Positions 23,135-41,566 are shown, counted from the stretch's first letter. The stretch: 64,000 nt of DNA from a virus (IMGVR_UViG_3300012039_000002:99356-163355), one strand, 5' to 3'. Notes: generated by a model from the sequence alone, not told the origin. A program made the numbers and translations.

Positions 23135-23200
23135 TTTATAACTAAATTGACGAGGTCTGCCGCGGGACTAAAATGCCCTACGCTGAAAGAAAGATAACGA

Positions 23201-25194: not shown

Positions 25195-25690
25195 CATCAA
25201 GTTCGTTAGAAAAGCCCAGATGGGAACAGCGTCTGCAAGTTCTCGGCTTGGTCTTGAGCGCCCCACTCACAAGTACATTAAGCGGGAGAACTTGGGCAAT
25301 GGGGAATACAAGTATATCTACGAGGATGCCAAGGGGAAGTCTGCTCCCTCTTCTAAGGATACAGAAGCTATGGTTGCTGACTTCACGACTTCTCTCTCAC
25401 GGGACAAGATGTTCAAGAAGTACGCTCAATACTTCGATGCAAAGGACTACACAAATGTAGCTGGCGCTATCATGGCTCGTGGGAAAGATGCTACGCCACA
25501 GGCATTTCTCACGGAGATGCAATACGCCAACAAGCTGTTGGGCCACAAGACAAGTCGTTTTCTACCTACAGGCGTTGCTGCAAAGGAATATAAGAAGCTC
25601 TTCTCACAGGCCGGCAATAGAGTGTCTGAATACAATGCTAAGATTTCTAAGATTGAGGCGGAACTAACTTCTCCAAGCCGAGGTGAATAA
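25175..25690 (+). CDS. putative head-internal protein with HKYIKR motif
   Basis: MKISLNNIKFVRKA N-terminus; HKYIKRENLGNGEYKYIYE. Confidence 0.6.
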   Translation: MKISLNNIKFVRKAQMGTASASSRLGLERPTHKYIKRENLGNGEYKYIYEDAKGKSAPSSKDTEAMVADFTTSLSRDKMFKKYAQYFDAKDYTNVAGAIMARGKDATPQAFLTEMQYANKLLGHKTSRFLPTGVAAKEYKKLFSQAGNRVSEYNAKISKIEAELTSPSRGE

Positions 25691-26511
25691 TGGACGGTTC
25701 ACTTGAAAGGAAAAGATCTGGCTCCAAGTTTCTACGGAAGAAGCTGACAGATGATGGGAAAGTTCGCTATATCTACAAAGAGTCCGAGCCTAGAGGGAAG
25801 AAAGCCGAAGAAGTCCCTCAAGACAAGAAACAACGCTTTATTCAGACTATTGACTCTACTGATAGAGGATTCAAAAACCTCTTCAGCGAAGCGTGCGATG
25901 AAATAGATGACATCCACTATGTTTGCATAAACTCAGGGTGCTCTTCGGTCCAGATGACTAATGACGTTGAGACGTTCTTTGATGTGTTGGATGTGCTGCC
26001 AGAATATCAGGAGAAAGATGTTTTCCGCTCTGCGTCGGGATGTTTTAATGTCAACAAGGGCAAGATTGCCTTTTGCTTAGACAACTTCCCTCAGGATATG
26101 TCGGAAACGATTAAGCAAGTCGTGATGCTACATGAGACTATGCATAGCTTTTTCTATGGAGCGCTCCGGTTAAAACACAAACAGCCTCTGACTGCTGACT
26201 CTTCAGATGACAAAATGGATAAGGATTACATTAAGAAAGCTGTCAAATTCGTTGACAGCTTTGGCAAAATAGATCAAAATATGCGCAAGACAGCTGAAGG
26301 TTCTGTTAAGGAAGTAAAGGGACAAGACAAAGAAACTCTATTGCTGAATCAGATTAGCGCAGCAATGATAAGTGAGTATGCGGCGATTAGCCCTGAAGAG
26401 CACTTCGCCGAAGCTGGTGCTTTCTATTTCATTCTACCCAATGTTCTAAAAACGAAAGAGGCAGAAGTCTACAAGGCTTTCAATGAATTTTTCGAGAAGT
26501 ATGAGGACTAG
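25690..26511 (+). CDS. zincin metallopeptidase-like protein (polyvalent-protein type)
   Basis: LHETMH (HExxH) plus SEYA..PEEHFAEA; N-terminal KFLRKKLTDDGKVRYIY motif. Confidence 0.7.
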   Translation: MDGSLERKRSGSKFLRKKLTDDGKVRYIYKESEPRGKKAEEVPQDKKQRFIQTIDSTDRGFKNLFSEACDEIDDIHYVCINSGCSSVQMTNDVETFFDVLDVLPEYQEKDVFRSASGCFNVNKGKIAFCLDNFPQDMSETIKQVVMLHETMHSFFYGALRLKHKQPLTADSSDDKMDKDYIKKAVKFVDSFGKIDQNMRKTAEGSVKEVKGQDKETLLLNQISAAMISEYAAISPEEHFAEAGAFYFILPNVLKTKEAEVYKAFNEFFEKYED

Positions 26512-26516
26512 TTTTT

Positions 26517-26663
26517 ATGAAGTATATAGTTACGGGCGGTAAAGAAAAAGACTTGCATTACACAATCATAATGGAAAACCAAGACGCAGAAAAGAAAGAA
26601 GCTCCGGCTGATCCTCCGCCTACTAAGTATAAAGAGGAGAAGAAGGAGAAGAAAAGTGGGTAA
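26517..26663 (+). CDS. small charged hypothetical protein (48 aa)
   Basis: ATG-TAA ORF read directly (MKYIVTGGKEK...), filling the gap; below the ORF-track cutoff. Confidence 0.45.
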   Translation: MKYIVTGGKEKDLHYTIIMENQDAEKKEAPADPPPTKYKEEKKEKKSG

Positions 26664-26685
26664 GCAGCGTCTTCGTAAATGGATA

Positions 26686-27075
26686 ATGAACAACCCGTTC
26701 TTTCAGTATCAAGGTCAGTTTAGCAAGTCTGCTTTCATTGCTATGAGTACATGGTTTCTTGTGCTTGTTAAATATCTCATGGCAGGCATGGCTTTTGGCG
26801 TAAGCACTGTTGAGCGTGTAATAGGCGGCCATGTAATTCCAGCGCTGTCATGGGCGTGGACCATTTCATTCAATGGAGAAGCCTCTATTGCTCTTCTAAC
26901 TACATGCTTTGCGCTGTACTTTGGTGGGAAGTTCTCACCGAAGACCAACGGTAAAGCGGAAGATGAACGTGATCAACGTCGTGACATTCGAGAAGATGCA
27001 GCGGCTGAGCGAAAAGACATAAGAGAAGATGCAGCTCAAGACAGAAAAGATATTAGAGAAGGTAAAGGAGCTTAA
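26686..27075 (+). CDS. two-TM membrane protein with 11-aa charged C-terminal repeats (holin-like candidate)
   Basis: Two hydrophobic segments; three R(R/K)DIRE repeats at 11-aa spacing; start placed at ATG 26686. Confidence 0.55.
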   Translation: MNNPFFQYQGQFSKSAFIAMSTWFLVLVKYLMAGMAFGVSTVERVIGGHVIPALSWAWTISFNGEASIALLTTCFALYFGGKFSPKTNGKAEDERDQRRDIREDAAAERKDIREDAAQDRKDIREGKGA

Positions 27076-27077
27076 TC

Positions 27078-28838
27078 ATGCCAGGGTTTGTAAGGACAAA
27101 GAAAGATGAAACGAAATGGTCCCGGGCTAAGGGAGCTGCTGGTGAAAAGGGCGGCGAGACTAAGTGGGCTCTGGCTAATTACATATTCCATAGAATGAAA
27201 AGTCTTGGGATAGATCTTGAAAAGTGCGTCGTTGAAAAGAGTAGCAACACAGGGATGCAGCAGTATTCTTCAGTTGTGTTCCAGACGCCTGGTAAGATAG
27301 GAGAACACGAACTAGAGAATGAGAAGCTTGACTTCCCATCTACTGGCAAGGCTCTCGATTTGACTAGGGTTATCCCTCCAGAATTTCCTTCAACGCCTGA
27401 GACAGGCAAGCCAATTGCTGCTGCATTTGGTTCTCCTGGTCGGCCAAACGAAAAGAGCTGGAACGGTCCTGACACTCAGCGCAAGGGCTCTGATTTTCCT
27501 AACGCTGATGTGCAAGAGTTTGCTAAGAAATCCTTCACAATGGCTGGTCGTAGAGTCAAAATAGTCAAGGGCGGAGATGAAGGCAGTCGTAACGGCAACT
27601 TGGGCGGCTATCCAATTGATGCTACGGAAGATGTCGAAAAGCGCCGGGCTTTCATAGCCAATGAGAAGATGAAAGAGAAGATGAAGGTGCATGAAGACAA
27701 CAAGAAGTATTCTGGCAATAGCACCTTCCAGATCTCTACAGGTCCTGATGCTTATTTGGGTAGAAGCTCTAAGCTTATTCTCATGAAGGGCAAGGAACGA
27801 ATAGGCGAATACACTGTTACATCTCCTGATAAGACCAAAGTGTATAAGCGCGCACCAATTGATCCAAACAAGCCACATGGCATCAATCTGATTCATTATT
27901 CTGCCGAGGCTCTTCGTAAGAAAGAGGAAAGAGCAAAGCGTAAAGTGTCTAAGGGCTCAGCGCTTGGTCAGATTATTCAGCAATGGTATACGCAAAATCA
28001 GCCACTCGACGCCAGTCTAAAGCCTCTTCTTGGCTTTCTTATAAAGAAGGACGACAAGAAAAAGGAAGAGACTGAAAAGGGCATGTCTTCTGAAGAAGTG
28101 CATAAGAAGATTAGGGAAACCACAAAGAAAGAGGGCGGCCCAAGGATCAAGCCTATTAAGAAGCCTGATCTGGGTCCTGACGGTCTTCCTGAAGACTATC
28201 AATCGCACGATCCTGATTTTTCTAAGTGGGCTACAGAATTCAACGCTAAGAAGTCACACGTCAACCCTATTGATGGTGGCATTGGTGACGAATTAGAATA
28301 TAAAGACGTTGACCAGAAAGAACTTGAAGCAGGAATAGAAGTTGAGCAAGAACACGTTGGCAACGATCCTAATATCGACGATGATGAAAAGAAGGTTCGT
28401 GGAGCTGATATTGCTATGGATCACTTGAAAGAGGATCCTAACTACTATACTCACTTGCAGGAAATGGAAAGAAGCGCCAAAGAAGAGAACAAATCAGAAA
28501 CTCAAAAGAAGAAGCTTCTTGCAGTGGACGAAGCAACAAAGTCTATTCCTAGACAAAGAAAGCTAGAAGACACTGTTGCTAGTGCCGAAAAAATGGTGGG
28601 TATTAGAGAGGAAACAGGCGCCAGTCCCGGAGAGCTAAAGACTACAAGAGGACAGCTTAAGGCGTACACAGCCAAGCTCAAGGCCGAAAGAAGGAAGAAC
28701 TCAGGCTTAGTTAAGGCTCAAACAAGAGAAGAAAGAGATCCTTCTAGCAAAGCTTACAAGAAGCTTCAGCGTGAAAATAAAGTGAAGTTTCATGCTGAAC
28801 CAAAGGTATACGTGAAGAAAGAAGAATCAAATGACTAA
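27078..28838 (+). CDS. low-complexity putative head protein with DUF5661-like domain
   Basis: ELEAGIEVEQEH..IAMDHLKEDPNYYTHL; many hydrophobic-x-K-[SAG] sites. Confidence 0.65.
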   Translation: MPGFVRTKKDETKWSRAKGAAGEKGGETKWALANYIFHRMKSLGIDLEKCVVEKSSNTGMQQYSSVVFQTPGKIGEHELENEKLDFPSTGKALDLTRVIPPEFPSTPETGKPIAAAFGSPGRPNEKSWNGPDTQRKGSDFPNADVQEFAKKSFTMAGRRVKIVKGGDEGSRNGNLGGYPIDATEDVEKRRAFIANEKMKEKMKVHEDNKKYSGNSTFQISTGPDAYLGRSSKLILMKGKERIGEYTVTSPDKTKVYKRAPIDPNKPHGINLIHYSAEALRKKEERAKRKVSKGSALGQIIQQWYTQNQPLDASLKPLLGFLIKKDDKKKEETEKGMSSEEVHKKIRETTKKEGGPRIKPIKKPDLGPDGLPEDYQSHDPDFSKWATEFNAKKSHVNPIDGGIGDELEYKDVDQKELEAGIEVEQEHVGNDPNIDDDEKKVRGADIAMDHLKEDPNYYTHLQEMERSAKEENKSETQKKKLLAVDEATKSIPRQRKLEDTVASAEKMVGIREETGASPGELKTTRGQLKAYTAKLKAERRKNSGLVKAQTREERDPSSKAYKKLQRENKVKFHAEPKVYVKKEESND

Positions 28839-29187
28839 AATAGTTGACTGGGACAAGTTCCAGAGCATGACGCCCAGACAAAAATCTGAGATAAATACTT
28901 CGACTATGTTCTCTGAACAGCGCGAGCAGGACGAAGACGATGATTCAGAAAAGAATGTCGGATTGAAAAAGATGGAAGAAGAAGTCCCGATCGAGTGGCC
29001 CGACGAAACAGAGAAGTCTAAAGCAAGCTCTATTTATACCACGCCGGGAGCACTTGTTTCTAGAACTTCTGGCGGAAAAGAGGGCGTCAATTTGATGCAT
29101 GAAATCGATAAGTTTAAGAGAAAAGAACCCTCAGAATTGGATCCCAAAAAGCCTACAGAGGAAACAGATGCAAATAAAGTTCAATAA
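28831..29187 (+). CDS. acidic hypothetical protein
   Basis: Overlaps both neighbours. Confidence 0.55.
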   Translation: MTKIVDWDKFQSMTPRQKSEINTSTMFSEQREQDEDDDSEKNVGLKKMEEEVPIEWPDETEKSKASSIYTTPGALVSRTSGGKEGVNLMHEIDKFKRKEPSELDPKKPTEETDANKVQ

Positions 29188-31768
29188 CATAAAGTTCATT
29201 AGAAAAGACAAAACACTCTTTTCTAGTCCACATAAGACTATCATGGAACACGACCAGACTGGCTACGTGTATCTTGACAATGCCGAAGGCGTTGCTATTA
29301 TGCCCTACAAAATGGGAGCAAATGGTAAAGAAGTATTGATCCGTGACGAATATAACCCTTTGCACACCACAGTGATGTCGATTATCACTGGTCGTAAAGA
29401 CAAGGGTGAGACCTGGAGGCAGACAGCTAAAAGGGAATTAGAGGAAGAGGCGGGCATTGTAGTACAGGAAAGATGGTTTGAAGATCTTGGCACTATTCTA
29501 CCCAGCGGTGATCATAAGAATCCTGATATCTTCTGTATCGTGGACGTTACTGGCATGGCTCAAGGCAAGCCCAAGACAGACGGTTCTATATTTGAAAAGA
29601 AGTCTACGAATAGTTGGGTCTCTATTTACGATCTTCATCGTATAGTAAGAGAGCCTTCTAATGTTGACGCATATTTGCTTTCGGCTATTGTAAAGATGCT
29701 TGAATGGGCCGGGCTTATAGCACAGAAATCAGAAGAGTCTGATTTGCTTAAAGCTAAGAAGGGTGAGCAAAAGGCTGGTCACAAATATATCCGAAGAGAA
29801 GGCTCTGAAGGCAAGTATAAATACATCTATACAGAGCCAAAGGGAAAGACCGGCAAGAAGGAAGAGACTAAAGGAAAGAAGCCAACGATGGTTGAGCAGT
29901 TAGCTGCTCTCATTGGGAAGAAGTCGGGCGGCGAGGAAGAAGAAACTGTTAAGAAGCAAGACGATTGGGATGCTTGGCCAATTGCGCCCAAGGATCTGCC
30001 CGAATTTAGCAAGGGCGTGAGCGCGTCTCAATGGGTTTCTAATATTATCAGAATGGTTGACACAAACGTGGCTCAATATGTCTCTTCCATTGACGACGGC
30101 ACGCTTGAGCTTATGAATAGTCCCGACGCTAAGAAGGGCTATATAGATGAAGCGCTTAACATGATGTATGAAAAGAATCACAAGTATGCAGGCACAGAAT
30201 CGAATTGGAAAGACTTGAATGTTGAAAATAAGAAATTAGATCCAAGTGCCCAAAACGAAGTAAAGAAAGCTATGCTACAAATGTCAACGGCGCTGGGAAT
30301 TGTTAATCACACCACAGCAGTGCTTAATAGCAGTGTCGCTGCTAATATTCATAGCAATTTCGAGAGTAGAGTGAAAGCAGCTGATGCTAAAGAAAGCGCC
30401 ACTTATCCGTCTTTTGAAAAGCTGTCTGAACTCATGGGTGACATCAAGAAGTCCCTTAATGTCGCGGATAATGTAATTCAGGACACTAAATGGCTTCAAG
30501 GCAACGACCCTAAATTGGATTGGCTAAACGATGCTGTGTTTAATGCTGTAGATAAGCTGATGAAGACTAGAAACAGATTTGTAAAAGACACTTTTGGCAT
30601 GTTCATTGGCTTGATAAGTGATAAAATGGACACTATGGACGATGCTTATAGTATCGAATCTACAGCGTCTCTTATAAATAGCTTCCAGAAGTTCAAGGAA
30701 GACGGCATGTATTCAACTACTTTAGCTCGTGACAACAAGACATTCGCTAATCAGTGGAACATGAAACAAAAAGGAATTTATTCTGGCGCTTCAAGGTTCT
30801 CTGCTAATGCTACGGCCAAGGTTGTTGATAAGATACACAGTCTCGATGGCGTAGAATCTGACGTCGCCGTAAGTAGATTACTTACCAAGATCTCAGATCA
30901 AAGAGCGTTTTCATTTCTTTCAATGAATCGTGTGGGTGCTAATAATTTCCATATGTCAGAGCAAGCATTCTCATATGTCGCTGAGCACGGTTTGGATAAG
31001 TTCTATCAAGACATGATGTTTGTGGCTGGTGGCAGAAAGCTATTTGCTGGAGATAAGACTTCTATTACTAGAACTAGATTGAGTTTTGCTCTCGATATGA
31101 TCGATAAAGCTTACAAGGGCGACGACGTATTCAAACAGTCGGATAACGCTGATAGAGCGCTTGGAAAGCCGTTAGGAGACATGACTAGAGGCGGTGATAG
31201 CCTTATAGAAGTGGGAGCTTTTAATGTTGCAATAAATACCATTGTTTTACTGAATAAAAAGAGTCCTGCCGAATCAAAGAACGCAGCCTTTGTGAGAATG
31301 TGGTCGTCTGCTTCTCATAACTCGCTAATGTCCAACGCAGTGGAATCGTTTGTTGAGACTAAGGCAATAGACAGGGGCACTTACGTCAATTACCACCTGG
31401 CTTCCAATAGAGTTGTTGCTATAAGCAGGCCAGAAGTCAAAGAGGTGTTGTCCACCACGATTCAAGATGTATATGATCAGACGCAAAGCTCTTTAGGATC
31501 TGGTAAGACTCTGAAACTATACCGAGGCAATGGGAAGAGTGAGGTTAAGTCTGTGGCTTCGTCTTGGACTTCTGATAGAGGCGTAGTTGATAACTTTGGT
31601 CCCGTGATTACCGAAGCCGAGGTGCCGACTGAAGCAGTGCTGATTTATCACCACTCAAAGAATAGCAGCGACTGGTCTTATCCATATGAGCAGGAACACG
31701 TACTTGTCCCTGGAATACTACCTGTTGAGAAAAGAATAGTTGGCAATGTTATAGAAGGCGGCGATTAA
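29168..31768 (+). CDS. Nudix hydrolase / ADP-ribosyltransferase-like polyvalent protein
   Basis: Perfect Nudix box GRKDKGETWRQTAKRELEEEAGI; C-terminal LYRG..SSWT..EQE (R-S-E ART signature); start placed at ATG 29168 (MQIKFNNIKFIRK). Confidence 0.75.
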   Translation: MQIKFNNIKFIRKDKTLFSSPHKTIMEHDQTGYVYLDNAEGVAIMPYKMGANGKEVLIRDEYNPLHTTVMSIITGRKDKGETWRQTAKRELEEEAGIVVQERWFEDLGTILPSGDHKNPDIFCIVDVTGMAQGKPKTDGSIFEKKSTNSWVSIYDLHRIVREPSNVDAYLLSAIVKMLEWAGLIAQKSEESDLLKAKKGEQKAGHKYIRREGSEGKYKYIYTEPKGKTGKKEETKGKKPTMVEQLAALIGKKSGGEEEETVKKQDDWDAWPIAPKDLPEFSKGVSASQWVSNIIRMVDTNVAQYVSSIDDGTLELMNSPDAKKGYIDEALNMMYEKNHKYAGTESNWKDLNVENKKLDPSAQNEVKKAMLQMSTALGIVNHTTAVLNSSVAANIHSNFESRVKAADAKESATYPSFEKLSELMGDIKKSLNVADNVIQDTKWLQGNDPKLDWLNDAVFNAVDKLMKTRNRFVKDTFGMFIGLISDKMDTMDDAYSIESTASLINSFQKFKEDGMYSTTLARDNKTFANQWNMKQKGIYSGASRFSANATAKVVDKIHSLDGVESDVAVSRLLTKISDQRAFSFLSMNRVGANNFHMSEQAFSYVAEHGLDKFYQDMMFVAGGRKLFAGDKTSITRTRLSFALDMIDKAYKGDDVFKQSDNADRALGKPLGDMTRGGDSLIEVGAFNVAINTIVLLNKKSPAESKNAAFVRMWSSASHNSLMSNAVESFVETKAIDRGTYVNYHLASNRVVAISRPEVKEVLSTTIQDVYDQTQSSLGSGKTLKLYRGNGKSEVKSVASSWTSDRGVVDNFGPVITEAEVPTEAVLIYHHSKNSSDWSYPYEQEHVLVPGILPVEKRIVGNVIEGGD

Positions 31769-32274
31769 TGATAAAGAAGCTTATTAAGAGTAGAAACTTT
31801 AGGTTCTTGCATCCAGAAGTTGTCGCCAAAGCTAACGAGCCTGAGTTACAGTCAATTCTTAAGGCCGTCTCCTATTTCAGGAACTTTGCTATTTTCAAGG
31901 CTCTCTATACAGCTCTTTATAAAGGCCGAAATCTTACTCTAGATCAATATCGTGGCCTTTATGATTTGCTAATCGACTATAGAAATACTCATCCAAAGGA
32001 TTATTTTGTAAGAGGTTTTAGTTCTGCGATACTGAAGTCTACTGCTATAAGCAAGAGCTCTAAAGCCATTTACGCTGTTATGGTTTATAATCAGCTATAC
32101 GAAGATGGGCTATTTAATGATCAAATTCACAAGTCAAATAAGCGACTAACCAAAGCTGTTGCAGCTTACTATTTGAGCAGCAAGCCCATTCATTTAGCTG
32201 TCATAAAGAAGACTAAGGTGAGCGTGATCAACAATAACAATCTTATAAAGTCTATCACAAAATGGAATCTTTAG
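31768..32274 (+). CDS. basic protein rich in hydrophobic-x-K-[SAG] motifs
   Basis: LIKS, VAKA, ILKA, IFKA, LYKG, ILKS, ISKS, IHKS, LTKA, LIKS within 168 aa. Confidence 0.6.
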   Translation: MIKKLIKSRNFRFLHPEVVAKANEPELQSILKAVSYFRNFAIFKALYTALYKGRNLTLDQYRGLYDLLIDYRNTHPKDYFVRGFSSAILKSTAISKSSKAIYAVMVYNQLYEDGLFNDQIHKSNKRLTKAVAAYYLSSKPIHLAVIKKTKVSVINNNNLIKSITKWNL

Positions 32275-32771
32275 CCACTACTCTCATCGTTCCGGACATG
32301 CGGACTAAAATAGCGGCTCTTAAACAATATATAAAGAGCGCCAATATGCACGCCACTAAAGCTCAATCATTCTTGCCTATGATTAAAGAAAAGAGGCTCT
32401 TGCCTCTCAATCACTCAAAATACTCAGGGAAAGTTGCGTACATCAATTGGATTACTAGAGGCAAGGCAATGTACTTGAATCTTAATGTATGTTACGATAA
32501 TGTTGGCAACATTACTAGTTTTGAGGTTATGACTAGAAATTTAAAGGTTAAGAAGCTATTTGATGTGAATAGGGTAAGAACGTTAGATGGCAAAATGTTT
32601 AAGCGGCATACAGAGCTTAAACGAAAGGAATCTCTTGTCTATACTGTGGACACTAAAAGCCTATATCCTGGCAGGCCTATAAAGCTTCTTGAGAATGGCC
32701 TTGAAAATTTTGCGTCTAGGGACAGAATTCTTCAAAAATTCGGTGTACAATTTGCTCCAATTGGAGTATAA
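32262..32771 (+). CDS. basic hypothetical protein
   Basis: ORF continuity. Confidence 0.55.
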   Translation: MESLATTLIVPDMRTKIAALKQYIKSANMHATKAQSFLPMIKEKRLLPLNHSKYSGKVAYINWITRGKAMYLNLNVCYDNVGNITSFEVMTRNLKVKKLFDVNRVRTLDGKMFKRHTELKRKESLVYTVDTKSLYPGRPIKLLENGLENFASRDRILQKFGVQFAPIGV

Positions 32772-32772
32772 T
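32744..32772 (+). promoter_or_regulatory. TGTACA-N17-TATAAT promoter
   Basis: Same motif and spacing as the early-region promoters. Confidence 0.6.
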
Positions 32773-32782
32773 GGAGGTTTAC

Positions 32783-32947
32783 ATGGATCTCTTTGAAAAG
32801 TCTGTTGAAAAAGAAAAACAGCATGTACCATCACTTGAGATTTTTGCTCGTAAAAAGGGTAGAGCATCAAAGAGATACGGCACAAAGAAACCTGATGAGA
32901 AAGTAAACCAGAAAGATTTACTAATTGCATGGCGGGAGGATACGTGA
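32783..32947 (+). CDS. small basic hypothetical protein (54 aa)
   Basis: GGAGG RBS; MDLFEKSVEK...; stop overlaps the GTG start of the next gene. Confidence 0.5.
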   Translation: MDLFEKSVEKEKQHVPSLEIFARKKGRASKRYGTKKPDEKVNQKDLLIAWREDT

Positions 32948-33306
32948 GGCTATTAATTTGCGGAGACCGTAACTGGTCCGACGGTTCGGCAATTAGAGAA
33001 ATAATTGCAAGATTTCAGCCTGACGTAGTTATCGAGGGCGAAGCTAGAGGAGCTGACACTCTCGCTCGTTTGTCTGCGGAATCTGCTGGGATAGAAGTAT
33101 TGAGATTCCCTGCCGATTGGACTACGTATGGTAAAGCTGCCGGTCCTATTAGAAATTCCCAAATGCTTCGCGAAGGCAAGCCAGACGTTATAGTAGGATT
33201 TCATTACAACGTGAATGAATCTAAAGGCACAAGAGATATGCTAATTCGTGCTAAAAAGTCTGGCAAAGCAACATTCATATTCGACGGTGAACTTAAGGAA
33301 TTCTAA
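32944..33306 (+). CDS. SLOG family (DUF2493/YspA-like) protein
   Basis: ICGDRNW, EGEARGAD, ADWTTYGKAAGPIRNSQM, GTRDM; GGAGG before GTG 32944. Confidence 0.85.
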   Translation: MRLLICGDRNWSDGSAIREIIARFQPDVVIEGEARGADTLARLSAESAGIEVLRFPADWTTYGKAAGPIRNSQMLREGKPDVIVGFHYNVNESKGTRDMLIRAKKSGKATFIFDGELKEF

Positions 33307-35130
33307 GTGAAAATAAGAGAAGAATATTGGATTTTTGCTGGTGGTGCTGGTCCCCCAGTTTACCCAAAGACCATCTACATATCGGATTACAACAATAGCA
33401 GAATTGTCGAGCGCTCTATTCCCGATTTAGCATACGTAGGACAAATGACTAGTTACAATTTGATAGAGCTTACGAATCTTTATAGACCACAATTTATAAA
33501 GGCAAACTCAACGCATCTGTTTATCTGGGATAATGATAATCCTTTTCTTTTTAGAATTGACAAAACAGATCTCGGCGCCACTGCTCAAACCATCGATGTA
33601 ACAGATTACTACCCGATCTACGGGATGGGTGTTGACGATAATTATATTTATCTTCCGAACTATAATAATGATTCTATTGTTAGACTAGATGCTACGACGA
33701 TGGCTTTTGTTGATGAAACCTCTTCGTATACGATAGGGATGGACACTTACTATTTTTATGGTCCCGAAAACATACATTCTGACGGCACTTACATTTATAT
33801 TACAAGCAACAGTGATAACAGCGTCGTAAAAGTGACAGCAGCCGACCCTTCGATCGGTGTTGCTTCATCGATCTTAGCTGGCAATGTTGACTTATCTTAC
33901 CCGGAAGGCGTTTGCGTCGATGGCAGTGGGAATGTGTACATCGCGGATTCGGGTTGGTTTAGAATAGTAAAACTAAACTCAAGTTTGCAATTTCAAGCTC
34001 AGGGCGGATATGGACCAAAAGCGACTGTGACTGCTATTGCGGGTGTCACAGGTTATTTTCAACCGACGTCGTTCACCGGGACATTCAATACGAGCGATGC
34101 CATTACATGGACGTCCGGAGCTACTGGAGAATGTTCAAGCTGGGATGGCACGACTCTTAATTTCAATGTGTTCACAGGCATGCCAGTTATAGGTGACACA
34201 GTTACGGGCCCAAGTGGCACAGCTGTAATGCAATGGGTGAATATAGACACAGATCTGACTTATACGGGACTGACGGATGGCCCATTTCAGCCTGGCTATG
34301 GCGGCTACGAGTATGTTCATTGCTCCAGACTGGGGGCAGAAACAATGAACGCTTATTTCTTGTCAGACAATGGCACTGTTGCTCGTGCTAGATTCCAGAC
34401 AAGCGATGGCATATACAATGCAACTGTGTTTGGGCTGCCGCAGATTGGGGACACTCTTGTACAATTTTTGGTCGACACTGGTCCTGTTGGCGGATATACG
34501 GTTCCTGATGCCGCGTTCTTTTATCCTTATGGCATAACAACTGACAATGTATCAATATACGTGGCAGACGTTGATAATAATCGTGTTTCAAGACGTACAT
34601 GTTCTACTCTGGCGCATCAAGGCATTTCATCTTACACTTATACTGCTACAGACGTTTATTATGACGGCGACAATCTTATTCTTTATGTAACAGAACCATG
34701 GTCCCCAAACATAGAAATATTAGAGACGGATTTTAGTGTTTTAGATTCTTATGTTAGCGCTACGATTGGGTTGGCGACGGGAGGATTTATTTTTCAAGAC
34801 GCAGCATCGCAGTTTGCTGTAGAATTCCCTACTCTTGCTCCGGGTGATTTTCTTTCTGCTTCAGGTTTTGCCGACGCAGACTACAACAGAGTATACGAGG
34901 TGGTGTCTGTAGATGGCGCGAATCAAATAACATGCGTAAATCCCTTTTCTAGTTTTAAAATTGGAGAGAGTGGAAACATTATAACTCTTGATATCGTTAG
35001 TTCTTTGCTAATAATAGATGACTTGACACAGCTCACCGCTGGAATTCCAAACGCTATTGTTAGCCCTACTGGAATTTGTTCTGACGGAACTTACGTCTAC
35101 ATTACGATTAATGATGGGGTAGCAGTGTAA
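33307..35130 (+). CDS. NHL-repeat beta-propeller virion protein
   Basis: PEGVCVDGSGNVYIADS, PYGITTD..IYVADVDNNRV, PTGICSDGTYVYI. Confidence 0.75.
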   Translation: MKIREEYWIFAGGAGPPVYPKTIYISDYNNSRIVERSIPDLAYVGQMTSYNLIELTNLYRPQFIKANSTHLFIWDNDNPFLFRIDKTDLGATAQTIDVTDYYPIYGMGVDDNYIYLPNYNNDSIVRLDATTMAFVDETSSYTIGMDTYYFYGPENIHSDGTYIYITSNSDNSVVKVTAADPSIGVASSILAGNVDLSYPEGVCVDGSGNVYIADSGWFRIVKLNSSLQFQAQGGYGPKATVTAIAGVTGYFQPTSFTGTFNTSDAITWTSGATGECSSWDGTTLNFNVFTGMPVIGDTVTGPSGTAVMQWVNIDTDLTYTGLTDGPFQPGYGGYEYVHCSRLGAETMNAYFLSDNGTVARARFQTSDGIYNATVFGLPQIGDTLVQFLVDTGPVGGYTVPDAAFFYPYGITTDNVSIYVADVDNNRVSRRTCSTLAHQGISSYTYTATDVYYDGDNLILYVTEPWSPNIEILETDFSVLDSYVSATIGLATGGFIFQDAASQFAVEFPTLAPGDFLSASGFADADYNRVYEVVSVDGANQITCVNPFSSFKIGESGNIITLDIVSSLLIIDDLTQLTAGIPNAIVSPTGICSDGTYVYITINDGVAV

Positions 35131-35531
35131 TGTGTATTTTAAAGTTCTTAATAGCCGGAACAACAATAGCGGATTTAGAATACGTCACAAAAAGCGTTCA
35201 GTCTTCGAATACGCAGGGTTGCTGTACGGATGGCACACACGTCTTTTCGATACACGCAGAAAGTATAGAGAAATTCTTGTGTTCTGATATGTCGCTTGTA
35301 GATGACTTTAGTGTATTTAATGGTTCAGACTCTTTTACAACAGTAATTGGAATAACTACAGATGGTACGTATTTTTATGTTACAGATGGATCAGGCTCAA
35401 ATGGTAGAGTAGTAATATTTAACAATTCTGACATGTCGTACGTTGGAGAATTTCCCACAGACATGGTGCCTCAAGGAATAGATCATGATGGTTCTAAACT
35501 GTATGTAAGTGAAATGATGTTATTGGGCTAA
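35130..35531 (+). CDS. NHL-repeat fragment protein
   Basis: GCCTDGTHVF, GITTDGTYFYVTD, PQGIDHDGSKLYVS. Confidence 0.7.
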   Translation: MCILKFLIAGTTIADLEYVTKSVQSSNTQGCCTDGTHVFSIHAESIEKFLCSDMSLVDDFSVFNGSDSFTTVIGITTDGTYFYVTDGSGSNGRVVIFNNSDMSYVGEFPTDMVPQGIDHDGSKLYVSEMMLLG

Positions 35532-35534
35532 TAT

Positions 35535-35861
35535 ATGAAAATCTATACATATAACATAACGTCTCCGTACGCTTTTGTCGATAATTTTATTTTAGGGACG
35601 CCCGAGTGTTTTACTGAATATGATCCAATCGCGGATTTTGGCTACGGAGTTTCGGTTGATTCTGGTAAGACATACGCAACGAATAGGTCTGTTGACAAGT
35701 TAGCTAGAGCCGACAATACTACGCTACTTGGAGACGCAATTGTGGGTTCAACTGGTTTTGGCAACGATAATTTTGATAACCCTACGTTTTCAGCCATTAT
35801 AACATATCCCGTGCCACCATCGCCGGCGATCGAAAATATCTTTGGTAATATTATATGGTAA
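35535..35861 (+). CDS. NHL-repeat fragment protein with FGNIIW tail
   Basis: YGVSVDSGKTYATN, GSTGFGNDNFDNP. Confidence 0.65.
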   Translation: MKIYTYNITSPYAFVDNFILGTPECFTEYDPIADFGYGVSVDSGKTYATNRSVDKLARADNTTLLGDAIVGSTGFGNDNFDNPTFSAIITYPVPPSPAIENIFGNIIW

Positions 35862-36796
35862 AGTATGATTTTTACATTCATACGTATGACGACGACCCGA
35901 CGCAAATTTTGGATCAAATAAAACAATTTCATCCATCTGCTAGAGCAATTTTAATTTCCGACGGCGGGAAAAAAGATTGGAACACTCAATACTTCCATAA
36001 ATTTGCTGATCGTCTTGAGAATAAGAGCTCTAAGTGGATTACTCGATGGTGGGATGTTACAAGAATCTATAATTCTGATTTCATTATAAGAGTAGATCCT
36101 GATTCTACAATCAGCGGGTCATTCAAAGATCCATTTCCATTAGCCGACTATTTTGGACACATTACAAGCTATCATAATTTTGGCGAAGAAAAGAAATTTA
36201 TTATTCACGCTGGCTTTGGTTTGTTTATAACAAAGCGTTTTGTGAATCTTGTGTACGATCAAGTAACAGATGAAAAGTTTTTAAAGAAAGAGTTCATGTA
36301 TAGAAACACATTAGTTTCAAACGAAAAAATATTGGCTTATTTAGCTTCTCAGAATGACATCTTGCCAGTCGAATATGATTCTGGTATAAAGCACAAGGCT
36401 CGCAGTATCGCCGACATTAGAAACGCAACTAGAGATAGCATAGATCTCGGCCAATTTGCTACTAAGTATGCTGAAAAAGTTAGAATTGCTGAAGAAGCTG
36501 AAAAAGCACTGCAAATAAGGAGAGAACAAGATGCTAAGCTTAAAGTCGACGAAGATGCTAGACTGAAAGCCGAACTTGAAGTAAAACGGACAGCTGAACT
36601 CAAAAAAGAGGCTAACCGCCAGCGGATAGAGAGCTTAAAAGACTCGGCTAAGCCAAGCGCTAGCGATACGATAGAAGATGTTGAAAGAAAATTGGGCGTA
36701 CTAAAATCACTGTATCTTGAAAAAGTAATTACTCAAAAAGAGTTTTTTGTGTCTACTAATAGTGTAAGAAATGCTATTAGTGAGAAAGAATCTTAA
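35855..36796 (+). CDS. glycosyltransferase-like domain + coiled coil + SHOCT-like tail
   Basis: ISDGG and RVDPD (DxD); charged helix; LGVLKSLYLEKVITQKEF. Confidence 0.5.
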   Translation: MVKYDFYIHTYDDDPTQILDQIKQFHPSARAILISDGGKKDWNTQYFHKFADRLENKSSKWITRWWDVTRIYNSDFIIRVDPDSTISGSFKDPFPLADYFGHITSYHNFGEEKKFIIHAGFGLFITKRFVNLVYDQVTDEKFLKKEFMYRNTLVSNEKILAYLASQNDILPVEYDSGIKHKARSIADIRNATRDSIDLGQFATKYAEKVRIAEEAEKALQIRREQDAKLKVDEDARLKAELEVKRTAELKKEANRQRIESLKDSAKPSASDTIEDVERKLGVLKSLYLEKVITQKEFFVSTNSVRNAISEKES

Positions 36797-37627
36797 ATGG
36801 CTTCGACGCTGTATATTGCTGACAGAGACAATTTTACAATCAAGAAATTTAGCGTCACTGATTTGTCTCTTGTAGACGAAGTAGCGACAGATGACAGTCG
36901 ATATGGTAGAGCGCTAACGATTATTGAGAGTATCGTTTATATGACGACAAACAATAATCGAATACAGGTTTTTACAGATAATCCGCTTACTCATGTTATG
37001 ACGTCGGGAACATATTCGGCAGGCACTCTGTATGCATTATCAGACGACGAAACAGTTCTATATTTAATTACAGATACCGGAAATGGAATACGACGAATAG
37101 ATAAAGACACTCTGCTATTTCTTACTGGATTCACAACACCAAAGGGATATACTATTAAAATATTCAACGGCAAGTCTTACAACAATACGTTAGCAGCACC
37201 ACAAACAGTAAATAAATACGACTTATCCGATTTCAATACGATAGAAGACTCATTTACAACACCAGATTCGGCACAGGCTTTAAGCTTTTACGCAAACGAC
37301 AATTATTTTATGGTATCAACTTCAGGAAACTTGTATCGCTGTGATCTTGCTACAATGACTTTCGAAGATTCGGTTACTAAATTGTCTCTATTCGGCAATA
37401 ACTATAATATAAAAGGCATTGTATGCGACAGCACTTATGTTTATGTATGTGGTAATCCCACCGAGGTTGGAGCCTCAAAGATTGCCAAGGTTCTTATTAG
37501 TGATCTGTCAATCGATCAATCAGTTAACGTGCTCGATACGGGACGGTTAGAATCTATAGAAATAATATTAGATGAAGCGCCGCCTTTTGTCGCTGGTCCG
37601 AATTCTTTTGGAAATATAGTGTGGTAA
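36797..37627 (+). CDS. beta-propeller virion protein with FGNIVW tail
   Basis: LYIADRDN, GIVCDSTYVYV repeats. Confidence 0.6.
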   Translation: MASTLYIADRDNFTIKKFSVTDLSLVDEVATDDSRYGRALTIIESIVYMTTNNNRIQVFTDNPLTHVMTSGTYSAGTLYALSDDETVLYLITDTGNGIRRIDKDTLLFLTGFTTPKGYTIKIFNGKSYNNTLAAPQTVNKYDLSDFNTIEDSFTTPDSAQALSFYANDNYFMVSTSGNLYRCDLATMTFEDSVTKLSLFGNNYNIKGIVCDSTYVYVCGNPTEVGASKIAKVLISDLSIDQSVNVLDTGRLESIEIILDEAPPFVAGPNSFGNIVW

Positions 37628-37628
37628 T

Positions 37629-39095
37629 ATGAAACCTGGCGACCAGAAGCCGAATCACAAGTACATTCGTAGAGTGCCTGATAGCAAGGGCGGTTGGAAG
37701 TACGTCTACGAAGAGTCGCAAGAAAGACTGCCTACGAAGCATGAGGAAGTTGTGGAAGCTAAAAAATACCCATTTAATATTGAGCTGGGCTTTAAGACTT
37801 TGGCAATCATTGACAAGCTTAAAGCTGCAGGACACGAGTCGTATGTTGTTGGCGGTTGTGTAAGAGACGCATTGCTTGGAAAACAGCCAAAAGACTTCGA
37901 TATCGTAACTTCAGCTAAGCCCAACCAGATTCAAGAGCTGTTTGGTATTCCCGGTTCAGTAGGTGCTAAGTTTGCTGTGAATATAGTTGACGGCCACGAA
38001 GTTGCGTCTTATAGAATTGATGATGAGGAAGCTACAAGCGCCAAAGAGACAGAAGTGTCTTTGGCTTCTTCAGTTGATGAAGACATGAGACGCAGAGATT
38101 TTACTGTAAATGCTCTTGTCTATGATCCAGAAACAAGACAAGTGTTTGATTTTGTTGGCGGTTTAGACGACGCTAAGAATAGAGTGCTTCGATTTGTGGG
38201 AGACCCTGACAAGAGAATCAAGCAAGATCCTATGAGAATGCTTCGTGCTATTCGTTTTGCTAATAGTAAGGACCTGTCTATTGACATAGAGTCTTTCAAG
38301 GCACTACAGCGAAACATGCCGCTGATTAAGAAAGAGGCACCTGAAAGAATATCTGCTGAAATAATGAAAATGTTTGAGTCAAGAGATACACTCACGGGTC
38401 TCTATCTGATGCTTACTACTGGCTTCTTAAAGGAAGTGATACCTGAGTTGTACGAGGGCTTTGAAGTTGAGCAAAACAAGCATCACGCTGAGTCGATTCT
38501 AATGCACAATATGCTTGCAGCTGACGCAATTAAAAAGAAAGATCCTGTGCTTAAGCTAGCGCTTTTGCTGCATGATGTGGGAAAAGTTAAGACAAAAGAG
38601 CTGAATCCTGAAACAGGCGACTACAACTTTTTAGGCCACGAAACTGTGGGTGCCGATATGGCTCGCAAGATCATGCGTCGCTTAAAGTTCTCAACAGAAC
38701 AAACAGATAAAGTTGACAATATTATTCGTCATCATATGTACTATTTTACTGATGAGACTAAAGACAAAACGATCAAGAAGTTTATGGCACTGCCAGAATT
38801 CAGAAACATACTGCGTGCAAGATTGGCTGATAGAAAAGCTAATTTAGCTAAAAAGGGAGTTCCCTACTCGTTTAAGAAGCTCATCAGAAAGATTAGGGTT
38901 ATTCAGACGACCAAACAGCCCGTGACAGTGAAAGACTTGGCTATAAATGGAAGAGACTTGATGGATTTGGGGCTTAAGCCAGGGCCGTTGTTTGGTAAGT
39001 TTCTCAACAACGCACTTGAACTAGTGCTTGAACAGCCAGAACAGAATCAAAAAGAGATTTTATTAGAGTTTGCTAAGAAGGAGTTCGGTCAATAA
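37629..39095 (+). CDS. cca: class II CCA-adding tRNA nucleotidyltransferase with HD domain
   Basis: VGGCVRDALLG..KDFDI, RRDFTVNAL, DPMRMLRAIRF, ERISAE, LLHDVGK; extra N-terminal HKYIRR motif. CCA versus poly(A)/CC/A specificity cannot be resolved by eye. Confidence 0.85.
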   Translation: MKPGDQKPNHKYIRRVPDSKGGWKYVYEESQERLPTKHEEVVEAKKYPFNIELGFKTLAIIDKLKAAGHESYVVGGCVRDALLGKQPKDFDIVTSAKPNQIQELFGIPGSVGAKFAVNIVDGHEVASYRIDDEEATSAKETEVSLASSVDEDMRRRDFTVNALVYDPETRQVFDFVGGLDDAKNRVLRFVGDPDKRIKQDPMRMLRAIRFANSKDLSIDIESFKALQRNMPLIKKEAPERISAEIMKMFESRDTLTGLYLMLTTGFLKEVIPELYEGFEVEQNKHHAESILMHNMLAADAIKKKDPVLKLALLLHDVGKVKTKELNPETGDYNFLGHETVGADMARKIMRRLKFSTEQTDKVDNIIRHHMYYFTDETKDKTIKKFMALPEFRNILRARLADRKANLAKKGVPYSFKKLIRKIRVIQTTKQPVTVKDLAINGRDLMDLGLKPGPLFGKFLNNALELVLEQPEQNQKEILLEFAKKEFGQ

Positions 39096-40156
39096 TGGCT
39101 ACCATTGTAACTAGATACGTCGACCCTAATTCGTCAGGTGGAAACGGCACCACAAATGCTTTATCTGGTGCTAATGCTGCTTATGCTTCGCTTTTTTCTT
39201 GGGAAGCGAATAGAAGAAGGAATCTTGTTTCGGCGGACGAAATCGAAAAAGTCATTTGTTCGTCAAATGACGGTGGAGAAGGCGCCCATTTAGCCGATAC
39301 AACATATTGTGCTATTGATGTAGGAACAGGATGGACGGTTGATTCTGGACATTTTATTTATTTGCAGGGTGCAACTAAACCAGGTGCAAAGTGGAACGAT
39401 AACATATATAGAATGATTAGAAATAACGCAGGCAGTTTTGCCTGTTTGCAGTCGAGTCAAACATATACGCTTATTGACGGCATGCAATTTCAAAGAACAG
39501 GAACTGGTTCAGGAAATGTTTCCCCGCTATACAGCGCTAGAGTCGGTAGTATCACAAGAAATTGTTTCATAAGAAATTCCATTACTAGCGGAACCTATGC
39601 GATGGGATGTTATTCGGGTGGTGAAAATAACGTTTACATATATAATAATGTTTATTTGCTTGACGGAACTCTTACTTCAAAGTTTGGAATTTATAGCTAC
39701 TGGACTAACTTCTATGCTTGGAATTGCACCGTTATTTGTAAAAATGGTTACACTGCGGGCGGCGGTGTTAGAGGAGAAATTGCTAATTGTGTGAATGCAA
39801 AAAATCTCCTTGTTAGAGGCTTTGGTGACGGATTTGCAGGGAATCTAACGGCTTCGTCCGACTATAATAGTAGTGACATTTCAGGCGACGCAGTAAATAC
39901 GGGCGGGTCTGGAAACGATAATACTGCTTCTCCGTGGTATTCTGGCGCTACAGCCGATGCTGACATATTTGTAGACGCTGCAAATAATGACTATCATCTA
40001 AAGCCGGGAACGATATTCAAGGGTGTTGGCACTAATCTTTCAGTCTCGTTTACAGAAGACATTGATGGTCAAACGAGACCTTTTTTATGGGATCTTGGTG
40101 CTGATCAACAAAATTTTAGAACAAGTGGTCCCTTTCCATTTCCTAAGATGAGTTAG
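39095..40156 (+). CDS. right-handed beta-helix (pectin lyase-like) virion protein
   Basis: N/G-rich repeats; DYHL..DIDGQTR..WDLGAD C-terminal motif. Confidence 0.6.
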   Translation: MATIVTRYVDPNSSGGNGTTNALSGANAAYASLFSWEANRRRNLVSADEIEKVICSSNDGGEGAHLADTTYCAIDVGTGWTVDSGHFIYLQGATKPGAKWNDNIYRMIRNNAGSFACLQSSQTYTLIDGMQFQRTGTGSGNVSPLYSARVGSITRNCFIRNSITSGTYAMGCYSGGENNVYIYNNVYLLDGTLTSKFGIYSYWTNFYAWNCTVICKNGYTAGGGVRGEIANCVNAKNLLVRGFGDGFAGNLTASSDYNSSDISGDAVNTGGSGNDNTASPWYSGATADADIFVDAANNDYHLKPGTIFKGVGTNLSVSFTEDIDGQTRPFLWDLGADQQNFRTSGPFPFPKMS

Positions 40157-40166
40157 AGGTAATATA

Positions 40167-40805
40167 ATGACGGCACCCGCGGGTAATTGGGTACAAAAAG
40201 CTTCAGATAGCTTTGTTAGAGCTAATGAGAATCCGCTTTCAGGCGGAGGCAATTGGAGTGGTCAGGGTCGGTTTTGTTATCTAACGAGCAATACGGTTTT
40301 CGGCACTGTTAACGGCGCGTCGAATGTTTCCGTCTGGACAGCTAGAACATGGCTTCCAGATCAATATGCTACAGTGTGGGCACCGACATACAGTGGCGGC
40401 AACTTACAAGGGCCTGCTTTGCGATGTACAGGTGGCGGGGCGAATGACGGATATTATTTCAGATTTAGAAGAGGCCCTGGCGCTAATAACAGCACAACAG
40501 ATCTTCTATACAAGACAGGCATTGATTCCGGTGGGTCAATCTCTTATTCGTTTACTCAAGCAAATGTCAATTCTCTTGTTTCTGGTTACATAACTGTGTA
40601 CATCAAAGGATGGGACTTTACTGCAGTAGATGAAGTCACCGGATTAGTGTTCTGTACGGCTACCGATTCTGGTCAACGTTTCGCGACTGGTTCTCCCGGC
40701 GTGCATGTATATACTGCTTTTGGAACTCCAGGTGTAATTGGTCCGTGGACTGGCGGAGAAGATATCGGTCGTGTTCGCTATCCAATTGTGTCGTTCAAGG
40801 GATAA
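40167..40805 (+). CDS. lectin-like beta-sandwich virion protein
   Basis: WVQKASDSFVRANENPLSGGGNW; paralog of the next gene. Confidence 0.55.
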   Translation: MTAPAGNWVQKASDSFVRANENPLSGGGNWSGQGRFCYLTSNTVFGTVNGASNVSVWTARTWLPDQYATVWAPTYSGGNLQGPALRCTGGGANDGYYFRFRRGPGANNSTTDLLYKTGIDSGGSISYSFTQANVNSLVSGYITVYIKGWDFTAVDEVTGLVFCTATDSGQRFATGSPGVHVYTAFGTPGVIGPWTGGEDIGRVRYPIVSFKG

Positions 40806-40839
40806 ACAATGGTTATGTTTGTAAGCGAGGCAGGTAGCA

Positions 40840-41442: not shown

Positions 41443-41531
41443 ACAACACGTACGACATTTGAATCGATTAAATCACAGTATCTTCCTAATTTAGTAGTAA
41501 ATCATACAAACATGCCGAACCAGAAAACGTA

Positions 41532-41566
41532 GGCACCACGCGGACGCGTCGGTGTCTTTTTGTTTT
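41532..41566 (+). terminator. intrinsic terminator-like hairpin immediately upstream of cytochrome gene RBS
   Basis: GGCACC-ACGCG-GA-CGCGT-C-GGTGTC followed by TTTTTGTTTT. Confidence 0.6.

Follow-up and report, generated by a model that had tools for sequence, protein, structure and literature searches.

A short predicted beta-hairpin shared by unrelated phage proteins as a candidate mark of head-packaged cargo in an SPO1/Twort/LE1-type capsid lineage

How a phage head selects the proteins that travel with the DNA into the next cell is understood in few model phages only (T4, P1, P22, N4 and the phiKZ-like phages). A locus in the viral genome IMGVR_UViG_3300012039_000002 raises this question for another group of phages. 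In a stretch of 64,000 nucleotides of this genome (positions 99356-163355; hereafter the window), four proteins of unrelated families carry the same short peptide, the tag. The first-pass annotation of the window described the tag as HKYIRR...G..[KR]Y[IV]Y and proposed that it is a portable basic beta-hairpin that tethers cargo to packaged DNA or to the capsid for co-injection, so that a protease, an ADP-ribosyltransferase (ART) and a CCA-adding enzyme would be part of the virion payload. Here, we ask what the tag is, where it occurs and what it marks. A portable hairpin emerged as predicted and the idea of cargo received indirect support, whereas a placement of the cca gene among structural genes was not borne out by annotation. 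The tag most likely marks proteins that are loaded into the prohead by phages with SPO1/Twort/LE1-type capsids and are then injected.

Four copies of the tag were found in the window by a six-frame regular-expression scan (Table 1), each at the place that the first-pass annotation had given and each within a long open reading frame (ORF) of the + strand; no fifth copy was found by the same scan in the whole 163,355-bp genome. The four carriers are a small helical protein (P0001), a zincin (P0002), a Nudix protein with a probable ART (P0003) and a CCA-type nucleotidyltransferase (P0004). By chance, 0.014-0.02 matches would be expected (200 base shuffles and 500 residue shuffles). Synonymous codons differ among the four copies, and the conservation is therefore at the level of the protein, with selection on the peptide, rather than that of a DNA repeat. 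The motif in the window, G.ERPG-HKY[IL][RK]R-loop-G.[WY].Y.Y, is one form of a consensus that comprises G-x-[EQ]-[RK]-[PA]-x-H-K-Y-[IL]-[RK]-R, a turn of 4-7 residues ending in Gly, [WY]-x-Y-x-Y, an acidic residue and a K/E-rich stretch. The similarity reaches past the core described earlier, both upstream (G-x-[EQ]-[RK]-[PA]-x) and downstream (the acidic residue and the K/E-rich linker). A promoter-like sequence, TTAATTTATA, did not recur within the window.

The tag is predicted to be a small, autonomously folding beta-hairpin of basic and aromatic character. AlphaFold2, applied to 51 aligned tags, placed two strands at positions 15-18 and 24-27 with a core pLDDT of ~80. These strands fall on R-R-V-P and W-K-Y-V of P0004, and the model of P0001 repeats the hairpin at lower confidence, so that modelling agrees with the beta-hairpin first proposed from the sequence. 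The tag is ~30 residues long; its core averages 18 residues, with a net charge of +3.7 and 4.6 aromatic residues, and includes an invariant Lys and Tyr-x-Tyr. As side chains of a hairpin alternate between its faces, the H, Y and R residues of the first strand would share a face with W/Y, Y and Y of the second, and this face is the conserved one. The tag itself lies outside every Pfam, PHROG and NCBIfam model, including the LPD and PolyVal models of Pfam, and a search of PDB sequences with the tag profile yielded nothing below E=1. A match to Pfam DUF3892 (PF13031) on a single carrier (P0017), with none on the window proteins, was rejected at 22 residues and 20.2 bits against a cut-off of 22.3. 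A literature search with motif strings returned solely an unrelated plant paper, and no description of the hairpin was found in the passages considered, or by term searches, of PMC5512222. The second strand of the tag looks like a single YD-repeat hairpin; one library match of 2,782 amino acids (P0068) aligns to the profile in fourteen places, each time partially and over the second strand (G-W-x-Y-x-Y), and probably belongs to the YD/Rhs-type repeat proteins.

Beyond the window, patterns back-translated from the four tags identified 59 loci in IMG/VR, in which the tag occurs 82 times and in 55 distinct sequences. Among 1.84 billion cluster representatives, a 51-tag profile matched 855 proteins at E<=1e-3 (76 at E<=1e-10). 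These proteins range in length from 36 to 3,135 amino acids and often contain 2-5 copies of the tag; ten representatives that were looked up are all metagenomic and bear no informative name. The tag is not common on cellular proteins, as six loci were found among 185,579 prokaryote species (one genome each), every one in a metagenome-assembled genome (MAG), and four of five tag-bearing MAGs tested carry the phage capsid gene PHROG 752; in two of these MAGs the gene and the tag seem to share a contig. When 72,556 plasmids were searched by tblastn with a single tag, a method that is insensitive for 34 residues, nothing was found. The sole cultured carrier found is Leptospira phage LE1, in which the tag stands at the N-termini of gp15, an annotated methylase of 1,971 amino acids, and gp26, a ParB-N protein. 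When LE1's own tag was used in tblastn, no copy was found in LE3/LE4, for which virion proteomics is available (PMC6078989); tblastn matches in Bacillus phages Spock and Flapjack were spurious. The densest use of the tag was seen in a 20-kb segment of another record (L075), where at least 11 small ORFs, and two more by eye, start with the tag in their first ~10 residues (MKTHKYLRKF and MPRPHKYLRKY, for example) and continue into unrelated domains (PRTase, DUF3626 or unassigned). A complete 104-kb phage (G001) has 13 copies, including six in one protein of 1,413 amino acids and four in another of 1,750; up to 5 true copies per protein occur in the library. The tag is thus a widespread mini-domain, undescribed in the libraries and literature searched, that adds an unnamed module to the picture of polyvalent proteins.

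The profile search that the first-pass annotation had suggested also provided a list of fused domains across related genomes, and this list is the domain repertoire of polyvalent proteins. Pfam matches on the carriers include ART-PolyVal, Kinase-PolyVal, InPase, ddrB-ParB, LPD1, Zeta toxin, an SNF2 helicase with a DNA methylase and RelA_SpoT, and further Nudix, GNAT, RadC, glutamine deamidase (Gln_amidase), 2H phosphoesterase, M90-like zincins, PRTase, DUF3626, DUF5661 and Rnl1 ligases. LPD1 is present on nine of 30 large carriers and M90-like zincins on two of 66 other carriers. Two or more disparate domains may share a chain, as in L006 (Nudix, Kinase-PolyVal and ParB-like) and L035 (ddrB-ParB, GNAT, ART-PolyVal and InPase). 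P0001, P0002 and P0004 are single-domain, solo forms, and P0003 joins a Nudix domain to a weakly supported ART. With its four carriers in the window drawn from unrelated families and the many fused domains elsewhere, the tag behaves as the portable module it was proposed to be. A MuF domain (Phage_Mu_F or SPP1 gp7-type) was absent from the Pfam matches of the 4 window proteins, 26 locus proteins and 96 library proteins.

The tag-bearing phages share a capsid lineage. The window phage is a myovirus with the gene order terminase, portal, protease, scaffold, capsid, sheath, baseplate and fibres, and its head is of the SPO1/Twort/Herelleviridae type (capsid protein PHROG 752, 5.8e-78; protease PHROG 1028, 1.2e-56). 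The closest cultured capsid protein is that of Bacillus phage YungSlug, at 41.5% identity. This capsid protein was matched by only 767 of 50,697 phage records (~1.5%). Among the tag-bearing records or genomes tested, PHROG 752 was found in 12 of 15, versus none of 14 control genomes; of the three that lack it, two are partial contigs (34% and 58% complete) and the third is a 0.9-Mb MAG. The PHROG 1028 protease was found in four of five tag-bearing records tested, and the LE1 capsid protein matches PHROG 752 at 1e-118. Tagged ORFs also lie inside or against the head module, that is, the portal, protease and capsid genes, in five of seven full genomes. Four consecutive tagged polyvalent ORFs are located directly upstream of the portal gene in G001; in G004 tagged ORFs stand between the portal and protease genes, in G006 between the portal and capsid genes, and in G002 two genes past the capsid gene. 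LE1 encodes gp15 between the portal and capsid genes and gp26 just past the capsid gene.

A cleavage-like motif precedes most tags. Among 178 tags from the top library matches, h-x-K-[SAGT] lies within 12 residues upstream in 157 (88%), compared with 11% at random positions of the same proteins. Fourteen of the 178 tags are N-terminal, and 4 motif-less tags lie no more than 15 residues from the N-terminus, such that 161 satisfy one condition or the other. The commonest spacing between motif and tag is 3 residues (77 cases). Downstream of the tag no such motif was found, and the hairpin would consequently stay on the mature module. The same motif, h-x-K↓[SAGT] (the arrow marks the predicted cut), recurs in the capsid proteins as K↓A or K↓S near residues 20-30, in the N-terminal regions of the proteases and at up to 17 places in the scaffolds of the window phage, G001, G002, G004, Bacillus phage YungSlug and a Staphylococcus Kayvirus. 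The capsid motifs are QAINK↓A in the window phage, DELLK↓A, QELSK↓A, AELRK↓A, ADLNK↓A in YungSlug and EDVVK↓S in the Kayvirus. Mature Twort-like capsid proteins presumably lack ~23 N-terminal residues, which fits K23↓S24, and this trimming, together with the conserved positions of the motif in head proteins, makes h-x-K↓ a probable prohead-protease site; a literature search did not find the cleavage specificity of Herelleviridae head proteases. In the window, the tag of P0003 is preceded by two predicted sites, the tag of P0001 by a conserved leader that ends FVRK↓A, and the tags of P0002 and P0004 stand at the very N-terminus. Three P0003 homologues (L041, L045 and L049) retain the leader, the motif K↓SEE[SD]DL.K and the tag. 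The usual place of the tag after a cleavage motif was missed in the first-pass annotation and, with it, the predicted retention of the hairpin, unlike the removed targeting peptide of T4. In the head proteases of the window phage, the Kayvirus and YungSlug, a C-terminal segment after K↓S copies the start of the mature capsid protein (protease K↓SFLTGHGTSPDTQVDAGALRKEE and capsid K↓SFQTGYGITPDTQIDAGALRRE, for example), which looks like a family trait for protease co-assembly.

We consider it probable, with a modest degree of confidence, that the tag is kept at the N-terminus of cargo that is packaged in the head and trimmed by protease. Cargo would be made as single tagged enzymes or as polyvalent polyproteins and would enter the prohead, inside which the head-maturation protease (PHROG 1028 type) would cut at h-x-K↓[SAGT], with the site either 0-9 residues ahead of the tag or where a short N-terminal leader ends. 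The released module would start with the hairpin, followed by the flexible K/E-rich linker and then the enzyme, and the retained hairpin would hold it to a common partner in the head until ejection. One candidate partner is the packaged DNA, with which the basic and aromatic character of the hairpin agrees, and another is a head protein at the inner surface of capsid, scaffold or portal, with which the restriction to one capsid lineage agrees. The virion payload proposed in the first-pass annotation is thus supported indirectly, by the polyvalent-protein domain repertoire, the head-module genes of other genomes and the motif upstream of most tags, and is not favoured by the position of the genes in the window phage.

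That position is one of several points that weigh against the proposal. The four tagged genes of the window phage are outside its head module, 52-66 kb from the capsid gene, in a tightly packed block on one strand after the fibre and glycosylation genes, and their neighbours bear no structural annotation. The claim that cca sits among structural genes likewise finds no support, as its neighbours are NHL-repeat proteins and proteins without a PHROG match. Furthermore, a Kayvirus, YungSlug and Spock, which are classical Herelleviridae with the same capsid and protease type, lack the tag; the capsid therefore does not need it, and the tag is an accessory of a subset of the lineage. The link to one capsid lineage could reflect shared descent rather than function, and the fixed spacing of 3 residues could mean that the upstream motif belongs to the fold and is not a cut site. 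The tag profile includes 10 upstream columns, which may have inflated the frequency of the motif by selection bias. A receptor gene specific to tag-bearing phages was not found in an all-against-all BLAST of low sensitivity that covered nine genomes (six tag-bearing and two tag-less ones against the window phage). Finally, cleavage at h-x-K↓ in any protein, and the packaging, the binding partner and the injection of the tagged ones, are inferred.

Other explanations of the tag have to be weighed, each of which explains less of the evidence than does a hairpin retained on head cargo. The composition of the tag (net charge +3.7, 4-5 aromatics, the invariant Lys and Tyr-x-Tyr) would also fit a general nucleic-acid-binding mini-domain, the basic and aromatic face of which stacks on bases and tethers enzymes to DNA or RNA in the infected cell, packaged or not. 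The ligase and the CCA enzyme would in this way be brought to tRNA, and ParB nucleases, methylases and helicases to DNA. Many carriers do act on nucleic acids (Rnl1, the CCA-type enzyme, ddrB-ParB, SNF2 with methylase and 2H phosphoesterase), but others act on proteins or small molecules (zincin, ART, kinase, zeta toxin, PRTase, InPase, RelA_SpoT and glutamine deamidase), and the PDB profile search revealed no significant similarity to solved nucleic-acid-binding chains. Neither the restriction to a capsid lineage, nor the position in the head module, nor the upstream cleavage motif is explained by nucleic-acid binding, and we regard such a role, whether in general or with these particular substrates, as unlikely. 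It overlaps with retention in the head if the partner there is DNA.

The tight, short distance between motif and tag, most often 3 residues, bears on a different role, in which the hairpin is a protease exosite: the head protease or the co-encoded zincin would dock on it and cut nearby, and its purpose would be polyprotein processing rather than retention or addressing. Processing of polyvalent proteins by zincins is proposed by Iyer et al. (PMC5512222), and a tagged zincin is encoded by the window phage. Such docking seems improbable, however, because dozens of tags are so close to the N-terminus that they leave no upstream sequence for a cut (P0002, P0004, the small ORFs of L075 and 14 of the 178 library tags), because in the same phages no tag adjoins the sites of capsid, scaffold and protease, and because zincins are on few carriers only. 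There is a similarly slight chance that the hairpin acts after injection, by bringing effectors to one host structure or to a genome entry complex (a membrane entry site or a host hub protein, for instance). The tag would indeed remain on mature modules, given that no cleavage motif lies past it, and effector-type cargo would gain from being placed together. The hosts look very diverse (Leptospira, and MAGs of Bacillota, Planctomycetota, Ignavibacteriales and archaea), which makes one conserved partner in all of them unlikely, save for DNA or some other universal molecule.

Retention of the tag on head cargo can be compared with known systems of protein packaging. The capsid targeting sequence (CTS) of T4, from the work of Mullaney and Black, is reportedly a short peptide on IPI-III and the Alt ADP-ribosyltransferase that serves in prohead loading, protease trimming and injection. 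Like it, the tag is a short peptide common to unrelated proteins, an ADP-ribosyltransferase among them. The T4 CTS has ~10 residues, is N-terminal and is cut off at its own C-terminal end (L/I-x-E), whereas the predicted cut lies upstream of the tag and the hairpin would be retained; the tag also departs from a T4-type CTS in having the motif upstream in 88% and never downstream, and in being internal in some proteins and present several times in others. The sequences are unrelated, the protease is of the HK97/SPO1 type rather than gp21, and the capsid lineage is different. In phage P1, Piya et al. in 2017 reportedly found the DarB methylase-helicase and DdrB to be packaged in the head through an ordered assembly that depends on DarA and Hdf. 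The two tagged proteins of LE1 are of the same kinds, one a very large methylase protein and the other a ParB protein of the ddrB type, both with genes in the head region; gp15 resembles DarB by analogy only. To our knowledge the P1 Dar system has no HKY hairpin. Encapsulin cargo-loading peptides are short and portable and bring unrelated enzymes into a shell of the HK97 fold; they are usually C-terminal and extended and involve no protease step. Their likeness to the tag is in function only, and the sequences are unrelated.

We know of no common retained hairpin in phages of the SPN3US/phiKZ type. In these giant phages many enzymes are packaged in the head and ejected, with propeptides cut by the prohead protease at a short consensus (PMC10052503, PMC7411985). 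The protease specificity and the capsid type differ from those of the tag system. The tag system belongs to none of these (the T4 CTS, SPN3US/phiKZ ejection, P1 Dar and encapsulin peptides), having a new sequence, a predicted upstream cut, no MuF and a different capsid lineage. The closest likeness in cargo is to polyvalent proteins, which are predicted to be delivered with invading DNA, to be included in the virion in phages and to be processed by proteases (Iyer, Burroughs, Anand, de Souza and Aravind 2017, PMC5512222). The repertoire is the same (ART-PolyVal, Kinase-PolyVal, InPase, ddrB-ParB, LPD1, methylase-helicase, zincins, Nudix and RelA_SpoT) and the genes are near virion genes, for the tag in five of seven full genomes. 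The tag is also carried by single-domain enzymes that this paper does not list (the Rnl1 ligase and the CCA-type enzyme), and, unlike polyvalent proteins, which occur in phages and conjugative elements, it appears confined to phages of one capsid lineage.

The carriers in the window were characterized individually (Table 1). P0001 has no Pfam, PHROG or NCBIfam match. In a family alignment of 10 homologues, F10, K13, A14 and the tag are invariant; its AlphaFold2 model has residues 1-28 disordered, the hairpin at 36-48 and helices at 60-165 with a pLDDT of ~90, and the helical domain has no fold match in PDB or BFVD. P0002 was rightly called a zincin, as it contains HETMH and matches Pfam Peptidase_M90 above the cut-off (E=6.6e-7, 29.6 against 26.2 bits); a match to NCBIfam MtfA is weak. 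The ORF of P0003 is open from 29099, the start given in Table 1 being the likelier one, and the ESM Atlas entry of the protein begins at residue 24. A Nudix domain was confirmed in P0003 at residues 75-179, ahead of the tag (Pfam NUDIX, E=5e-7), and its C-terminal ART has weak support, from Pfam DRAT at E=0.034 and from ESM Atlas, where DraT look-alike clusters, as judged by a language model, score 0.91. BLASTP found no similarity between this C-terminus and a true ART-PolyVal domain, and a PDB sequence search returned no match to it. P0001 and P0003 also have a second element in common, a leader of the form M-x-I-x-[LF]-N-N-I-K-F-[VI]-R-K, that is kept in both families across related contigs and ends FV[RK]K↓A in the P0001 family; to judge from its sequence, it may be a removable propeptide separate from the hairpin.

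P0004 has the layout of a class II CCA-adding enzyme, with a Pol-beta head, an RNA-binding body and tail domains (PolyA_pol PF01743, 4.9e-31, from residue 72; PolyA_pol_RNAbd PF12627, 5.4e-12; tRNA_NucTran2_2 PF13735, 1e-11; HD, 5.7e-10), and matches PHROG 2244 at 7e-69. It is under the NCBIfam equivalog cut-offs for CCA-adding enzymes and for PcnB (218 against 438.8 bits for TIGR02692, 215.8 against 290 for NF009814 and 215.5 against 305.65 for PcnB). The label of CCA enzyme is hence corrected to class II nucleotidyltransferase with HD domain; CCA addition is its likely activity, with family scores that do not separate CCA addition from A addition or poly(A) synthesis. No cellular family model begins before residue 54, which makes the stretch of ~55 residues ahead of it, tag plus linker, an add-on foreign to cellular CCA enzymes, as had been noted. 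The tagged form is common to three close relatives only (P0005-P0007). A bacterial-like CCA match from residue 10 in MT838315 was discarded, as the tag is absent there and the alignment had run into the upstream gene.

Around these genes are an Rnl1 ligase, a DUF5661 protein, a YAcAr/SLOG protein, NHL-repeat proteins and, further on, RtcB. The Rnl1-type RNA ligase of the window phage is untagged; orthologues in related contigs (L003, L046, L038 and L052) have the tag at residue 17-19. Upstream of the ligase and in frame with it is an ORF of 76 amino acids, with two stop codons between (region 22904-23200). A stretch of this ORF, LEKPPHVFISKKGPNTFISL, resembles a decayed tag by eye and was rejected at a profile score of -2 bits. 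The Rnl1 ligase, the CCA-type nucleotidyltransferase and RtcB are three enzymes of RNA-repair type in one phage, which suggests a strong investment against cleavage of tRNA or RNA. A YAcAr (YspA/cpYpsA-related SLOG) protein of 125 amino acids is encoded close to P0003, and the two may form an NAD/ADP-ribose theme. The DUF5661 protein lies between tagged genes and seems to belong to the same cargo set, because DUF5661 recurs on four tag-bearing library proteins.

Table 1. Positions of the tags, their carriers and other features (in window coordinates unless another record is named)
Feature	Position	Strand	Description
Tag copy 1	25268-25321	+	HKYIKRENLGNGEYKYIY in P0001; regular-expression scans; profile 53.9 bits
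Tag copy 2, degenerate	25723-25776	+	SKFLRKKLTDDGKVRYIY in P0002; profile 35.0 bits
Tag copy 3, internal	29780-29830	+	HKYIRREGSEGKYKYIY in P0003; profile 38.9 bits
Tag copy 4	37656-37709	+	HKYIRRVPDSKGGWKYVY in P0004; profile 56.8 bits
Predicted prohead-protease sites	29726-29755	+	AQK↓SEESDLLK↓A before tag copy 3; h-x-K↓[SAGT] motif, kept in P0003 homologues; putative cleavage
P0001, 171 aa	25175-25690	+	leader (MKISLNNIKFVRK↓A), spacer, tag, helical bundle
P0002, 273 aa	25690-26511	+	N-terminal tag on zincin-type metallopeptidase, HETMH; C-terminal part M90/MtfA-like
P0003	29168-31768	+	leader MQIKFNNIKFIRK, Nudix, two cleavage-like motifs, tag, K/E-rich linker, ~400 aa without assignment, possible DraT-like ADP-ribosyltransferase end
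P0004, 488 aa	37629-39095	+	N-terminal tag and ~30-aa linker on class II tRNA nucleotidyltransferase (CCA-adding or poly(A) polymerase family) with HD domain
Leader of P0001	25175-25213		shared with P0003
Leader of P0003	29168-29206		shared with P0001
ORF upstream of Rnl1 ligase	22904-23134		76 aa
Rnl1-type RNA ligase, untagged	23201-24838	+	Pfam RNA_lig_T4_1 3.6e-22
DUF5661 protein, 586 aa	27078-28838		E=3e-11
YAcAr protein, 125 aa	32929-33306		E=4.8e-12
RtcB	43757-44863		Pfam 9e-77
Head protease, window phage (L061)	10394-11437		C-terminal copy of mature capsid start
Head protease, Kayvirus (L077)	520-1293		C-terminal copy of mature capsid start
Head protease, YungSlug (L078)	991-1734		C-terminal copy of mature capsid start
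LE1 gp15 (L079)	13136-19051		N-terminal tag
LE1 gp26 (L063)	8971-11550		N-terminal tag
Small tagged ORFs (L075; G005:C1:20001-40000)	2448-19291		
Tagged region of G001 (L071/L072)	39887-52835		13 tag copies

To judge from the tagged set of the window phage, the DNA may arrive in the cell together with ready-made RNA-repair, NAD/ADP-ribose and protease activities. By including single enzymes such as the Rnl1 ligase and the CCA-type enzyme, the tag extends the polyvalent picture and makes virion-delivered tRNA repair possible. A bolder form of the idea, which we hold tentatively and think rather doubtful, takes the hairpin as a universal address code that directs proteins to the inside of SPO1/LE1-type capsids, so that a cut site and a hairpin together would mean packaged, trimmed and injected, with tRNA-repair enzymes pre-loaded against host anticodon nucleases (the CCA-type enzyme in the window phage, the Rnl1 ligase in relatives). 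If true, such a code would amount to a new class of counter-defence carried by the virion, and it would offer a ready-made tool with which foreign proteins could be put into phage heads. Since LE1, a phage of the harmless saprophyte Leptospira biflexa, carries two tagged proteins, the idea is directly testable in a culturable phage. The tag is a short, recognizable label for hundreds of unannotated proteins as probable injected effectors in a large and mostly uncultured group of phages, and the sites at which giant polyvalent proteins are divided into working enzymes would become predictable from it. Confirmation would give an annotation rule for phage dark matter and a candidate handle for packaging chosen proteins in phage capsids, as well as evidence that RNA-repair, NAD/ADP-ribose and protease activities can be delivered pre-made.

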